The notes beneath the pieces are model-generated. The model did not search any database and had not been told where the DNA came from. It saw only the letters and a list, made by a program, of their open reading frames with translations. Shown here in pieces: positions 3,043 through 19,907 of a stretch of 27,196 nucleotides of DNA. The position numbers and the translations under genes were made by a program. The stretch's first letter is position 1, and each line of letters opens with the position of its first letter. This DNA is from Nanobdellota archaeon (GTDB lineage Archaea; Nanobdellota; Nanobdellia; Pacearchaeales; GW2011-AR1), in assembly GCA_018816625.1 (NCBI GenBank), contig JAHIVR010000108.1, positions 1 to 27,196 of the forward strand, read 5' to 3'.

Positions 3043-3109
3043 AAATGAGCCTACTCTAAACCGGCTACGCTTGGACGGAAATCGAATAGTTAGAAAAATG
3101 AGCCTACTC
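3043..3109. repeat. 14-bp duplication of the tRNA-Ile 3' end (AAATGAGCCTACTC at 3043-3056 and 3096-3109) enclosing mini-element copy B (3057-3095)
   Basis: Exact 14-bp direct repeat; the 39-bp insert contains GGCTACGCTTGGACG, 14/15 identical to the core at 9601-9615. Confidence 0.75.
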
Positions 3110-3219
3110 GGATTCGAACCGAGGACCCCTGCCTTTCTTAGAAAAACTAAGATACCTACAATCCTAACGGACCGCATTCATATAAGAGCAGTGCTCTGAC
3201 CAGGCTGAGCTATAGGCTC
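3099..3219 (-). tRNA. tRNA-Ile(UAU) with a 46-nt intron (3135-3180) at position 37/38
   Basis: Cloverleaf: acceptor GAGCCTA/TAGGCTC plus discriminator A, D stem GCTC/GAGC, anticodon stem CTGCT/GGCAG, loop CT-TAT-A|A, T arm CTCGG-TTCGAAT-CCGAG. Canonical BHB (CTTA:TAAG helix, bulges TA|T and AA|A). No encoded CCA. Confidence 0.93.
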
Positions 3220-3351: not shown

Positions 3352-3498
3352 GCCCCGTTAGTACAGAGGCCAAGTATGCTGCCCTTTCAAATGACGGCAC
3401 AAGTCGGCGTTTGTTGAGGAAACCTTGTGTTTCCGATTCAAATGGCACGACCATCATGAAGCACGGCAGTGACCCGGGTTCGAATCCCGGACGGGGCG
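3352..3498 (+). tRNA. tRNA-Glu(UUC) with a 74-nt intron (3390-3463) at position 37/38
   Basis: Acceptor GCCCCGT/ACGGGGC plus G, anticodon stem CTGCC/GGCAG, anticodon TTC at 3386-3388, T arm CCGGG-TTCGAAT-CCCGG. BHB: CTTT:GAAG helix with bulges CA|A and CA|C. Confidence 0.95.
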
Positions 3499-12879: not shown

Positions 12880-14580
12880 TTAATCTCTCTCCTCTATCTC
12901 TTTCCTCAAATCCTTAATAAAACCATCTAACTTTACACCAAGCTTAACCTTGCCATGATTTCTAATTGCCAAATTCTTACCCTTTTCTTCTTTATCTCCA
13001 ACAACAATAATGTAAGGAATTTTCATTAATTCGGCATCCTTAACCTTTCCCTGAACGGTAGCATCCTTAAAATCAGTATCAACCCTCAGATTAGGAATCT
13101 CTTCTTCAAGTTCCTTCACTATCTTTTCAGCATATTTAACACTCCTATCCGTAAAACTAAGAACTCTTACCTGGATGGGAGCTAACCATGTCGGAAGTCT
13201 TCCATTAAAATGCTCTATCATTATCCCAATAAATCTCTCCAAAGCACCATATATAACTCGGTGAATCATTACCGGTCTTTTTCTTTTATTATCTTTATCT
13301 ACATATTCTAATTCAAATCTCTCAGGCATCTGGAAATCCAACTGAATGGTAGCACACTGCCAAGACCTTCCAAGAGAATCTTTAATATGAAAATCAATTT
13401 TAGGCCCGTAAAAAGCTCCATCTCCAGAATTAAGTTTAAATTTTACTTTTTTTCTTTTCAAAACTCTTTCAAGAAGCTTCTCGGCCTTATCCCAATCTTT
13501 ATCACTCCCTATTCTCTTCTCGGGCCTAGTAGAAAGCTCCAGAACATAAGGGAGATTAAACTTCTTATAGAAAAAATCAATTAAATCCATAATTTTTGAT
13601 ATTTCATCTTCGGTCTGCTCCTCCGTACAAAAAATATGTGCATCATCTTGAGTAAATTGAACAAGCCTAAACAGTCCCCCAATGACTCCAGAAAGTTCTT
13701 GCCTATGGACCACTCCCAACTCTCCTACTCTTAAAGGAAGATCTTTGTACGACTTGGTCCCGTTTCTATAAACAAGCATTCCCCCAGGGCAATTCATGGG
13801 CTTTATAATTGCAGGCTTATTCTCATAATAAGTCAAAAAGTTATTTTCTTTATACTTATCCCAGTGGCCAGAAATCTGCCAGAGTTTTTTATCCATTATT
13901 TGGGGGGTTGATATCTCTTGATAACCATTTTTTTTATGGGTTTCTTTCCAAAAATTAATTAATTCGTCTTTAATTGCAAGTCCATTGTTATGCCAAAAAA
14001 TCATACCAGGAGCAACCTCATTAAAGGAATACAAATCCATTTGTTGCCCCAAAATCCTGTGATCATTCTCTTTTAACTTTGAAGTGTCAAGCCTAGACCT
14101 AGAAATCTCATTAAGGAGTTTTTTAAAGTCAATCTCCTCTTCAATTACTTCTTCCCCTTCTAAATCTGGTTTTATCTCCCTACTCAACTCACTCAAGGGA
14201 TGTCCCTTGACCTTTAACTCAAACTCCTTATAATACCCAAAAGGAGCTCTTGAAACACTATAATCTTTTTTCAAAACCTTCTCGGCATCTTTCAAAACCT
14301 CTACAGCAACATCTGGAGCAGCCAAATTTTGAGAAAGATGGGCATAGGGATAAAGAACAATATTTTTTGCTTTAACCTGCTCTGCAACCTCTTTTATATG
14401 CTGAACAAAAGCCTTAACACTCTTCTTAGAGTCTCCTTTTTCAACAGCAGTCATAACAACCAAAGCCTCTTTTATTTCCTTCCCCTCCATCTCTTTTCCA
14501 GTAAGATCCTCAATCTTTTTTAGAGCTTTTTTCAAGGGTTTATATCTTATATAACTAGAATGTAACAATAAAATTTTCAT
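12880..14580 (-). CDS. thrS: Threonyl-tRNA synthetase (archaeal-type editing domain + bacterial-like catalytic core)
   Basis: N-terminus YPYAHLS, RAPFGYYKEF, KGHPLSELSR; core DHRILG, SGHWDKY, KPMNCP, FTQDDAHIFC, GAFYGPKID, WQCATIQLDF, ERFIGIMIEH. Confidence 0.96.
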   Translation of the reverse strand: MKILLLHSSYIRYKPLKKALKKIEDLTGKEMEGKEIKEALVVMTAVEKGDSKKSVKAFVQHIKEVAEQVKAKNIVLYPYAHLSQNLAAPDVAVEVLKDAEKVLKKDYSVSRAPFGYYKEFELKVKGHPLSELSREIKPDLEGEEVIEEEIDFKKLLNEISRSRLDTSKLKENDHRILGQQMDLYSFNEVAPGMIFWHNNGLAIKDELINFWKETHKKNGYQEISTPQIMDKKLWQISGHWDKYKENNFLTYYENKPAIIKPMNCPGGMLVYRNGTKSYKDLPLRVGELGVVHRQELSGVIGGLFRLVQFTQDDAHIFCTEEQTEDEISKIMDLIDFFYKKFNLPYVLELSTRPEKRIGSDKDWDKAEKLLERVLKRKKVKFKLNSGDGAFYGPKIDFHIKDSLGRSWQCATIQLDFQMPERFELEYVDKDNKRKRPVMIHRVIYGALERFIGIMIEHFNGRLPTWLAPIQVRVLSFTDRSVKYAEKIVKELEEEIPNLRVDTDFKDATVQGKVKDAELMKIPYIIVVGDKEEKGKNLAIRNHGKVKLGVKLDGFIKDLRKEIEERD

Positions 14581-14673
14581 GGAATTTCTAAAGCTAACTT
14601 ACTTATAAAACTTTCTTACAATCTCGTTTGAAGTCATGAAAAGTTTTAAAAACACTCTAACAAATCCAATACA

Positions 14674-15393
14674 ATGAAATTAAGAAATATTCTATTAATC
14701 GGTGGAGCCGGGCTAGCACTAGCAACAGCCATACCTAAAGAAACAGAACAATCGGATAGCCCCCAACTTAGAAATCTGGAACCAGCACACACATCAGAAG
14801 AAAGGTTAAGTTTCCAACAAAGAGCAAAAATCACCCCAAAAAATGTTAATCATCTGGATACATTAATTTTAGCACAAGCAATCTATGGGGAAGCGAGAGG
14901 AGAATTAGATAATGACACATATATTGGGGGAGTTGTAAGCACAATAGTAAACAGAGCCAAGACCGGGTTGGGAATAAGAAGAACCCTTTTAGAGAAAACA
15001 ATCCATCCAGATAAAGTAGTTTACCACTATTCTTGTTTTGACCCGTCTGATCCAAACTACAGGGTCATTTCAAGTTTACATCCTCCAAGAAATCCCAATC
15101 AAGAAAATATCTGGAATAGATGTTATTTAACAGCAAAACAGGTTTTAGAGGGCAGACTAGAGGTAGATACTAGTTTAGCAAACGCAACTCATTTTTTTGT
15201 TGGCCACGATCCAAGGAAAAACACAACAAAAAATCAGGCATCTCGAAGGGGCATCCCAGGATGGGCCTATGAAATGACCAAAGACGGAAAGTTTATTCTT
15301 GATGAAAACAAAGAAAGAGTCCCAAAAACACCACTATTGGTTGTTGATTTAAAAGAGAATAGAAAGGCTTTCTTTTATAGTTTAAATAATTAG
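14674..15393 (+). CDS. Secreted SleB-like (Hydrolase_2) cell-wall hydrolase / lytic transglycosylase
   Basis: Signal-like N-terminus; LAQAIYGEARGE (putative catalytic Glu 14890-14892), TIVNR, YHYSCF, ATHFF. Confidence 0.72.
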   Translation: MKLRNILLIGGAGLALATAIPKETEQSDSPQLRNLEPAHTSEERLSFQQRAKITPKNVNHLDTLILAQAIYGEARGELDNDTYIGGVVSTIVNRAKTGLGIRRTLLEKTIHPDKVVYHYSCFDPSDPNYRVISSLHPPRNPNQENIWNRCYLTAKQVLEGRLEVDTSLANATHFFVGHDPRKNTTKNQASRRGIPGWAYEMTKDGKFILDENKERVPKTPLLVVDLKENRKAFFYSLNN

Positions 15394-16451
15394 TTTTTAA
15401 GAATGCACCCATCCAAATCACCCTTCTTAACCTTATCTAATCTATTTTGAAAATCGCCTATTAATTTAATAAGTTCTTCAGAAAGCATTTTCTTCATCTC
15501 TCCGCTTAGAATCTTTCCTTTCCTGTAATCCTCGTAAACCTCTTTTGTTTTTTTATCATCAAAGAAAAAATCTTTAAGATAAAGATAAGAAACATCCTTC
15601 TCGGAATTTCCACCTTTTTCTCTATGTTCATCAATGGTCTTTTGTCCACCAGAAAAAGCACTATTGACCTTTTTTATTATGTCTTTCTTAGAATCGCTAA
15701 AAAATATAGCGTTACTCTTAGATTTTGACATTTTCTCTCCATCCAATCCAGGCAAAAAACCAGCATGAAGTATTGAAGGGGCCCTATATCCCAGTCTTCT
15801 CGCAATATCTCTTGAGATTCTTATGTGGGCATCTTCATCAGGGCCTATTGGTACCAAAACATTCTTTATTCCAAACTTTTCCTGAGGAAACAAGATATGC
15901 GCTGCCTGAATTGCTGGATAAAAATGCAACCCAATATTCTCCTCGTTTTTATATCCGTAAGTCGCCTTTATCTCAGAAAGATTAATTTTCCTAGATAGTT
16001 TTATTGCTAAATTGTATATGTTTGTATAAATCTGATCTATAATAAAATAGGTTTTCTTGGGATTAAATCCGTAAGCCAAAAGCTCTTTAGCCAGTTTCAA
16101 AGCATTTTGTAAAGCCTCGTCCTGATTTTCAACCTTCCCCGCAACATAAGATTCATCGTCAGATATAGGAATAAATACTTTAACACCATACTTTTTTTGA
16201 AAAAACAAATTAGTATCGAAAACAACCTTATGCCCTATGTGTATTGTGCCAGAAGCGTTAAATCCTGAAAGAATAGCACACTTCTCTCCCCTCTTCAAGG
16301 CCGCAAAAAACCTATCAAAATCCCTATGGGAATATATCAGCCCCTTCTTAAAAGTGTAAAAATCTGGCAAATCCTTTAACTTCGATAAAGGCTCCGCTCC
16401 AAATCTCTTAACGAGCTTCTCATTATCTTCTTGAAGTTTCTTTAAATCCAT
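15390..16451 (-). CDS. trpS: Tryptophanyl-tRNA synthetase (archaeal/eukaryal type)
   Basis: HIGH (GTIHIGH), KMSKS, YPAIQAA, SGGQKTIDEHREKGGN. Confidence 0.93.
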   Translation of the reverse strand: MDLKKLQEDNEKLVKRFGAEPLSKLKDLPDFYTFKKGLIYSHRDFDRFFAALKRGEKCAILSGFNASGTIHIGHKVVFDTNLFFQKKYGVKVFIPISDDESYVAGKVENQDEALQNALKLAKELLAYGFNPKKTYFIIDQIYTNIYNLAIKLSRKINLSEIKATYGYKNEENIGLHFYPAIQAAHILFPQEKFGIKNVLVPIGPDEDAHIRISRDIARRLGYRAPSILHAGFLPGLDGEKMSKSKSNAIFFSDSKKDIIKKVNSAFSGGQKTIDEHREKGGNSEKDVSYLYLKDFFFDDKKTKEVYEDYRKGKILSGEMKKMLSEELIKLIGDFQNRLDKVKKGDLDGCILKN

Positions 16452-18830: not shown

Positions 18831-19907
18831 ATGAAAAGAGGGGATAAAAAAGGCTTATCCACCGTTATTGTAACTCTCATATTAATAGGACTAGGAATAG
18901 TTGCGGTGGTGCTTGTGTGGGCGGTAATAGGAAAAACTATTTCTGAAGGAAGCAATGAAGTAGAATTGGGAAAATTCACTATTAACCTAAAGATAGAAAA
19001 AGTTATTATAAATGACGGTTCTGTGGAAATTACCGTAAAAAGAGATGTTGGAAGGGGGGAAATCTCTGGATTGAATATAGTTTTCTTTGACGGAGCCCAA
19101 CAAAAAATAGTGAAGGTTAATTCCCTTGATTTAGGAGAGCTAACAACAAAAAAATTCACAGTCGATTATCCTGGCATTATTAAAAGCGTTGGAGTCGCTC
19201 CTCTTTTAAAGTCAGACTCGGACTCTGTTGTTGCTGGAAAAATACAAGGAACAATAGAATATTCTGGTAGAGAGGCAATAGAAAACATACCTGGACTAGT
19301 ATCGTGGTGGAGATTTGAAGGTAATGCCCAGGATGAAGTAGGAGATAACAATGGTGTAGCTAATGGAGCAACACAAACAGATGGAAAATTTGGAAAAGCC
19401 TATGCATTTGACGGAGCTGATGATTATATCAATATTACAAATGATGTTTCACTTCAATTAGAAAACTCAAACTTCACAATAGCAACATGGGTTTATTTAA
19501 ATGATTATACGGCAGTTTGGAAATCTTTTGTAACTAAAGGGAATATATTTAATTTTGTGGATGGTTATGGTTTAGCAACTTTAAATGATGCTCCTTTTTT
19601 TGGAACCAGATACTCAAGTGCTGCCAGCACTAATACTCTCTCCTCAGATAATTGGTACCATATAACAGGAACACATGATTTTAATAATGCTGGCAATACT
19701 ATAATAAAAATTTATATAAATGGTGATCTAGATAGAGAAGAGGTTTTAGCTTCAACATCATCAACACTAACTAATGATCATTTATTAATTGGAACAGATG
19801 AGAACATTGTCTGGGACTTCAACGGAAAAATAGATGAATTCATGATTTTTAATACAACACTATCAGAAGATGATATTCTAGCACTATATAATTTAGATTT
19901 AAGTTAG
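18831..19907 (+). CDS. Archaeal type IV pilin-like protein with C-terminal LamG / ConA-like domain
   Basis: Class III signal peptide MKRGDKKG|LSTVIVTLILI; LamG hallmarks LVSWWRFEG, GKFGKAYAFDG, WYHITGT, KIYING, FNGKIDEFMIFN. Confidence 0.85.
   Translation: MKRGDKKGLSTVIVTLILIGLGIVAVVLVWAVIGKTISEGSNEVELGKFTINLKIEKVIINDGSVEITVKRDVGRGEISGLNIVFFDGAQQKIVKVNSLDLGELTTKKFTVDYPGIIKSVGVAPLLKSDSDSVVAGKIQGTIEYSGREAIENIPGLVSWWRFEGNAQDEVGDNNGVANGATQTDGKFGKAYAFDGADDYINITNDVSLQLENSNFTIATWVYLNDYTAVWKSFVTKGNIFNFVDGYGLATLNDAPFFGTRYSSAASTNTLSSDNWYHITGTHDFNNAGNTIIKIYINGDLDREEVLASTSSTLTNDHLLIGTDENIVWDFNGKIDEFMIFNTTLSEDDILALYNLDLS

Follow-up and report, generated by a model that had tools for sequence, protein, structure and literature searches.

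The window (the whole stretch of 27,196 nt analysed here) contains a gene that lies on the opposite strand between thrS and trpS. A preliminary description, made from the sequence alone, had proposed it to be a secreted SleB-like peptidoglycan hydrolase gene in an archaeon. The ORF listing of the window bore out the gene itself: an intact ORF with an ATG start and a TAG stop was found in this position (Table 1), and the intact LAQAIYGEARGE motif on which the proposal was built was located in its product. The hydrolase gene is separated from thrS by 93 nt, and the stop codon of trpS overlaps its own stop codon by 4 nt. The thrS product carries the archaea-specific editing domain (PF08915) together with the class II core (PF00587) and the anticodon-binding domain (PF03129), and it matched TIGR00418 of NCBIfam with an E-value of 5.8e-164; trpS was recognised by PF00579 and TIGR00233 (E 3.6e-77). 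The hydrolase itself consists of an N-terminal hydrophobic segment, a polar linker that varies in both length and sequence among homologues (alignments A1 and A2), and a single predicted catalytic domain. No cell-wall-binding or second domain was found in it by domain scans or in the structure model.

Table 1. Features of the hydrolase locus (positions are those of the window)
Feature	Position	Strand	Remarks
Hydrolase gene	14674..15393	+	239 aa, intact
LAQAIYGEARGE motif	14869..14904	+	aa 66-77; predicted catalytic Glu E73, codon 14890-14892
N-terminal export signal or membrane anchor (predicted)	14674..14733	+	aa 1-20; hydropathy
Polar linker, low-confidence	14734..14847	+	aa 21-58; pLDDT 46-67
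Catalytic domain, SleB/Hydrolase_2 fold (modelled)	14848..15390	+	aa 59-239; pLDDT >90, VIA-align, hhalign
Insertion 1, long-form subfamily	15202..15252	+	about aa 177-193
Insertion 2, long-form subfamily	15271..15357	+	about aa 200-228
thrS, archaeal type	12880..14580	-	divergent neighbour, left border of the conserved slot
trpS	15390..16451	-	convergent neighbour, right border of the conserved slot
Candidate archaeal promoter (BRE-like and TATA)	14638..14652	+	GAAAAG, then TTTTAAAAA

The preliminary description had left it to be confirmed that the contig is archaeal and non-chimeric across thrS, the hydrolase gene and trpS, and this was supported by the relatives of the ThrRS, the promoter, the base composition and the recurrence of the gene order. 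The closest named relatives of the ThrRS (70-77% identity) belong to Candidatus Pacearchaeota and Nanoarchaeia, and the genome from which the contig comes has a size of 1.13 Mb, a completeness of 78% and a contamination of 1.4%. Upstream of the hydrolase gene, the TTTTAAAAA TATA box ends 21-22 nt before the ATG and is preceded by the purine-rich, BRE-like GAAAAG, a spacing predicted to be of the leaderless type. A TATA box at a like distance was found in 11 of the 26 window genes, thrS included, against a chance expectation of 2.7%. The GC content (0.376), the GC3 (0.279) and the correlation of RSCU with the rest of the window (0.80) place the hydrolase gene in the middle of the local range.

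The thrS(-)/hydrolase(+)/trpS(-) order recurs in at least nine related genomes and three metagenome contigs. It is present in the same-family genomes G015, G002, G005, G353, G095, G170, G414 and G301 and, whole or in part, in an independent archaeal MAG from NCBI (L003) and the metagenome contigs L128, L129 and L130; the block often precedes the same MG2-like membrane protein. In the genomes G014, G006, G064, G012, G027 and G023, thrS and trpS are directly adjacent and the slot is empty. Given that filled and empty versions occur among relatives, the thrS-trpS interval is one conserved slot, and its recurrence excludes, for practical purposes, that the hydrolase gene in the window is a chimera or a contaminant; synteny, promoter and composition together rule this out. 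The same evidence decides whether the gene could be bacterial or phage DNA that arrived by mis-assembly or binning, or by the recent insertion of a phage endolysin. Such an origin might be expected from the overwhelmingly bacterial and phage-borne occurrence of Hydrolase_2 and from the presence, in the same bin, of a phage-like contig of 2.6 kb that encodes a canonical PF07486 endolysin, but it is effectively refuted by the tight position of the gene against thrS and the trpS stop, by its local archaeal promoter, GC content and codon usage, by the same arrangement in related genomes and independent metagenome contigs, and by the failure to find any long-form copy in IMG/VR.

The phage-like contig, C211 (G000; L002:762-1214; L127), encodes a 150-aa canonical PF07486 protein (E 3.4e-17) that is signal-less; downstream of it come a number of small membrane ORFs, together with one ORF whose signal is of the lipoprotein type (MRKRISWLLLCWTLLVAFNGC). 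The layout resembles that of a phage lysis cassette directed at a Gram-negative host, and C211 is probably a bacteriophage fragment that was mis-binned with the archaeon. It was also considered as a second copy of the hydrolase and was rejected, its product being a canonical signal-less endolysin on a phage-like contig.

Two further observations concern the window as a whole. For 11 of the 26 genes, the start codon lies 20-23 nt downstream of the end of a TATA-like 8-mer, which often has GAAA upstream of it (for example 14603-14610 for thrS and 14644-14652 for the hydrolase gene), which points to mostly leaderless transcripts and a very uniform promoter geometry. In addition, two tRNA genes with long introns are present (3099-3219 on the minus strand, 121 nt; 3352-3498 on the plus strand, 147 nt), both of which were found by Rfam and missed by ARAGORN.

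A phmmer search of 1.84 billion representatives returned 134 homologues of the hydrolase with E<=1e-3, 13 of them with E<=1e-30, so the ORF is not a chance one. About 37 matches with E<1e-10 cover the full length and represent its own subfamily, which is aligned in A2 (38 members); the full homologue set comprises 135 sequences. The weaker matches (E 1e-7 to 1e-3) span aa 60-176, and 37 of the 40 that were scanned are Hydrolase_2 proteins of Pfam (PF07486). When the subfamily was compared with canonical Hydrolase_2 by hhalign, the probability was 99.85% with an E-value of 8e-31 over 123 columns. A profile of the close homologues matched SleB structures alone in the PDB, the best being 4FET (E 0.013, over the motif). 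The homology of the hydrolase to Hydrolase_2 is thus solid.

Standard domain models gave a different outcome. Scans of the hydrolase against Pfam, NCBIfam and PHROGs yielded no usable match, even at E<=10. PF07486, the model by which the preliminary description proposed to verify the family, left the hydrolase undetected both in the protein scan, where there was no match at E<=10 and the gathering score of 27 bits was not reached, and in the whole-genome search, where C211 was the sole match. Within the subfamily, the PF07486 model reached E<=0.01 for 2 of 38 members. The clade to which the hydrolase belongs, which comprises about 50 clusters when grouped at 50% identity, is invisible to Pfam and NCBIfam, and the SleB/Hydrolase_2 family, fold and catalytic Glu that had been proposed were borne out by profile and structure methods alone.

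An AlphaFold (AF2) model built on the 135-sequence alignment had a mean pLDDT of 84.5, with values above 90 from about aa 57 to the C-terminus; a 4-sequence alignment had given a pLDDT of 48. In a VIA-align comparison with 48,161 PDB representatives, the model was closest to SleB 4FET_A (Z 10.3, rmsd 2.8 A, 119 of 122 residues) and SleB 4F55_A (Z 10.2), and the next row, MltG, followed at Z 3.1. The preliminary description had named a model unlike SleB as a finding against it; here SleB catalytic domains stood far ahead of all else (Z 10.3 against 3.1). Foldseek placed SleB entries first in the PDB, though weakly (E 0.18), and its top matches among viral models (BFVD) were almost all phage proteins named 'Cell wall hydrolase SleB'. 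The catalytic domain, as modelled, has the SleB fold.

The LAQAIYGEARGE motif aligns with MANAVYGESRGE of SleB in 4FET and 4F55, and E73 falls on the Glu of AVYGESRGE in both. Counted along the deposited chains, this Glu corresponds to residue 151 in B. anthracis or 157 in B. cereus, which we take to be the catalytic glutamates. SleB cannot act as a lytic transglycosylase without its glutamate (PMC12331253), and a SleB-like T6SS effector requires the equivalent Glu for toxicity (PMC11148199). In the subfamily, G72 and E73 are invariant in all 38 members and nearly so in the 135 homologues. This pattern weighs against the idea that the protein is catalytically dead or mainly a binding protein, that is, a surface adhesin for bacterial wall glycan. 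A surface tether followed by a linker would be a suitable architecture for an adhesin, but the catalytic Glu and its neighbouring Gly and Arg, invariant or nearly invariant in the 135 homologues, are what is expected of an active enzyme, and we regard the adhesin as very improbable.

Of about 183 model residues, 119 pair with SleB. Two insertions set the long form apart; both are modelled as beta-hairpins and are conserved within the subfamily. Insertion 1 follows the ATHFF strand and precedes the IPGWAY motif; it stands opposite a gap of canonical Hydrolase_2 in the hhalign alignment and is conserved within A2. Insertion 2 is a beta-hairpin region that precedes the final AFFY strand, with model strands at 199-201, 207-209 and 222-225 (pLDDT about 97) and a consensus, F.LD..G.RIPR.P, that is kept in A2. 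The failure of the Pfam model on the hydrolase is explained by these two insertions.

The signal-like N-terminus noted earlier was also recovered. In MKLRNILLIGGAGLALATAIPKE, a basic n-region precedes a hydrophobic core of 15 residues (mean Kyte-Doolittle 2.27), after which comes an A-T-A motif; a possible signal-peptidase site lies at A17-T18-A19/I20. A basic stretch with an N-terminal hydrophobic segment is present in 38 of 38 subfamily members, as judged by eye and hydropathy, and Tat motifs occur in the subfamily member P0037 and in the G002 orthologue. The conserved hydrophobic N-terminus, the A-T-A motif and the polar linker make export of the hydrolase probable, after which it would be either released or tethered by the hydrophobic segment and the linker.

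As the preliminary description noted, archaea lack murein. In a search for Mur ligases, Mur_ligase_M was not found in this 78%-complete genome, and the control was positive in 12 of 14 reference genomes. The archaeon thus appears to have no murein or pseudomurein-type wall of its own to remodel, and the substrate of the hydrolase would therefore have to be foreign. SLT, M23, Amidase_2 and LysM were likewise not found in the 78%-complete genome, so a wider 'attack kit' is not apparent and the hydrolase would be the sole recognisable murein enzyme.

We propose that the function of the hydrolase is the extracellular cleavage of the glycan strands of bacterial peptidoglycan, with a probability of roughly 0.7. 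The Pacearchaeota (DPANN) protein would pass the membrane and be released, or be held at the surface by its N-terminal segment, with about 40 flexible residues as a linker, so as to display a single SleB/CwlJ-type (Hydrolase_2) catalytic domain outside the cell. By analogy with SleB, Glu73 would serve as the general acid and cut the MurNAc-GlcNAc bond of peptidoglycan, in the manner of a lytic transglycosylase or a muramidase. Points against the proposal are the requirement of SleB proper for muramic-delta-lactam, the missing cell-wall-binding domain, the failure of PF07486 to detect the protein, the weak Foldseek ranking of SleB, the absence of a wider kit in the 78%-complete genome and the patchy distribution of the gene. 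The substrate may be the wall of a contacted bacterium or wall debris; the most likely role would be the local opening or weakening of the sacculus of a bacterial partner or prey, and killing of competitors or harvest of amino sugars are alternative uses to which the same chemistry could be put.

A substrate other than murein, cut by the same fold, has to be weighed against this proposal. The candidates would be a glycan from the envelope of an archaeal host, be it pseudomurein or another polysaccharide, a polymer resembling chitin, or the archaeon's own surface glycans. DPANN archaea with known hosts live mostly on other archaea, which would favour an archaeal polymer; pseudomurein, however, has a beta-1,3 talosaminuronic linkage that is resistant to lysozyme-type enzymes. 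The two conserved insertions lie near the active-site lobe and could alter specificity, the protein has diverged beyond Pfam detection, and it carries no peptidoglycan-binding module, but its Glu and its YGEARGE, CFDP and W..C motifs are identical to those of bacterial and phage members. Since, in addition, all characterised relatives act on murein (PMC12331253, PMC11148199, PMC7807722), we consider a non-murein substrate unlikely and peptidoglycan the preferred one.

The subfamily profile matched 5 of 36 sampled genomes of the archaeal family, 6 of 27 when high-quality genomes were taken, and, in the rest of the phylum, 3 of 373 genomes. With such a patchy distribution, the hydrolase is not essential to the lifestyle of these archaea. 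In the phylogeny, the long forms make up one clade of 50 sequences with a support of 99 (FastTree), or of 30 sequences with a support of 98 in the IQ-TREE subset. It holds the window protein, the copies of L003, G015, G017, L128 and L130, and anonymous metagenome proteins; among the anonymous long-form proteins (n = 46), the taxonomy was checked for P0003, P0008, P0010, P0013 and P0033, which coincide with loci examined here. Neither a named bacterium nor an IMG/VR virus falls within the long-form clade, and the IMG/VR search found no long-form copy. The short slot genes of G002, G005, G353, G095 and G170 (about 185-215 aa) group elsewhere with anonymous proteins. Across a weakly supported split (83) lie 21 of the 23 named bacteria and 13 of the 14 IMG/VR viruses, and most of the tree rows interleaved with archaeal sequences are anonymous. 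The gene was probably acquired long ago from bacteria or phages by an ancestor of the archaeal family. The simplest reading, in which we infer both the direction and the number of transfers from sequence, would be an old acquisition followed by fast divergence in situ, with the gene staying at a single chromosomal position and disappearing on repeated occasions.

In comparison with SleB and CwlJ of Bacillus (4FET, 4F55), the hydrolase has the same catalytic fold and the YGE(A/S)RGE motif with its Glu, and export is shared too, although for the hydrolase it is predicted. The differences are an identity of about 18%, the two insertions (about 17 and 29 aa), the lack of the N-terminal PG_binding_1 domain of SleB, scores below every Pfam and NCBIfam threshold, and a producer that is a Pacearchaeota-type archaeon instead of a spore former. 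The nearest named relatives are single-domain Hydrolase_2 proteins of Alphaproteobacteria and phage endolysins, to which the hydrolase is 29-35% identical across aa 60-176. The motif set QYSCFNP.DPN / W..C / ATHY / P.WA / FY is common to them and the hydrolase, whereas in the tree these relatives stand on the opposite side of the split (support 83) from the archaeal sequences. Phage Hydrolase_2 endolysins have no signals and reside in lysis cassettes, in contrast to the hydrolase, with its export segment and its thrS-trpS slot.

The same fold has been turned on foreign bacteria elsewhere. Ladybird beetles carry horizontally acquired Hydrolase_2 (cwh) genes that limit the growth of B. subtilis (PMC7807722). 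Both the beetle cwh proteins and the SleB-like T6SS effector T6EC3 (PMC11148199) retain the catalytic Glu, as the hydrolase does; the former are secreted into the haemolymph of a eukaryote, and the latter is injected by the T6SS of a Gram-negative bacterium. For archaea, one survey reports that peptidoglycan hydrolases kill bacteria, that they are prominent in Nanoarchaeota and that they are listed for Pacearchaeales, a cell-wall-binding domain being the criterion for such an enzyme (Strock 2025, PMC12352652). A second study reads GH23 lytic transglycosylases of Woesearchaeota as signs of predation (Vigneron 2022, PMC9723730). These enzymes resemble the hydrolase in being exported murein cutters (predicted to be so here) of murein-less archaea, with a patchy distribution and a bacterial ancestry, and they differ from it in being modular (LysM+SLT, PG_binding_1+Amidase_2) or GH23 enzymes, the hydrolase being a single catalytic domain. 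The tables of PMC12352652 and PMC9723730, within the parts available, contain no Hydrolase_2/SleB entry, and none of the papers searched mentions SleB together with DPANN.

That the archaeon attacks or scavenges bacterial walls, as the preliminary description had suggested, is a reasonable reading by analogy, and it agrees with the published view of DPANN peptidoglycan hydrolases. The hydrolase would fit the published idea that bacteria serve DPANN archaea as targets of attack, as sites of attachment or as food; it is an archaeal version, missed by Pfam, of an enzyme family already known, and with the general concept already published, the gain is incremental. To our knowledge, a host has been identified for very few Pacearchaeota. 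A conserved murein cutter that is predicted to be exported, in an organism without murein of its own, provides genomic evidence of physical dealings with bacteria, and such dealings would tie part of the Pacearchaeota to bacteria, beyond archaea alone. The hydrolase also offers a small, easily expressed protein for testing bacterial contact. Furthermore, surveys that depend on domain libraries undercount enzymes of this kind, as the clade is invisible to Pfam and NCBIfam and carries no binding module of the sort demanded by the main survey.

The preliminary description had further pointed to a LamG pilin and an exported subtilisin in the same window as signs of a contact-dependent lifestyle. 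Both genes are present. The Laminin_G_3 protein (18831-19907, plus strand) starts with MKRGDKKG/LSTVIVTLILIGLG, a class III (type IV pilin-like) signal that makes 'LamG pilin' a fair name, and the subtilisin is a Peptidase_S8 gene. Their presence is thereby established, but nothing connects them functionally with the hydrolase, from which the former is separated by 3.4 kb and the latter by 12 kb, other, unrelated genes intervening. A link of the hydrolase to either of them was rejected, the shared contig being its sole support.

The thrS-trpS slot holds one of several kinds of gene, namely long-form or short-form SleB-like genes, the latter partly Tat-exported, or, in genome G061, a gene of another family. 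In G061 (L091:3268-3957, plus strand), the slot is occupied by an unrelated, signal-bearing ORF of 229 aa. The family to which it belongs (alignment A5) numbers about 40 proteins, in which the Glu residues of AIR.AENG.DS.AYGI are invariant; this family gave no sequence match in Pfam or the PDB and was found in 2 of 60 genomes of the archaeal family. Two members lay near GH73 glucosaminidase clusters in a language-model search of the ESM Atlas, a weak match (0.93-0.94); canonical GH73 was not found in the archaeal family searched. It is conceivable, if rather doubtful, that the thrS-trpS gap is a long-lived slot for exchangeable, surface-exposed enzymes directed at the partner's envelope. If this were true, the long-form insertions would have arisen in archaea and would redirect the enzyme towards the walls of particular hosts, and the content of the slot would predict the bacteria on which each lineage lives.

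Three relatives showed irregularities at this locus. In L129 (578-1309; Ga0180732_1007817), the long-form slot copy is split over two frames; HMM positions 46-127 fall in one ORF, and the tblastn match runs on to 1309, which reflects either a frameshift that made this copy a pseudogene or an error in the assembly. In L117 (G001:C6:17316-19523), one stop-free frame of 748 aa contains the thrS match as two separate segments (aa 1-148 and 143-565). This implies that some 160 additional residues, in frame, separate the editing domain from the catalytic core; they are perhaps an intein or a mobile insert. In L116 (G023:C2), trpS is 72% identical to the trpS of the window and the adjacent thrS 55%, whereas other relatives show the reverse; the trpS of G023 may have undergone recombination or replacement within the family.
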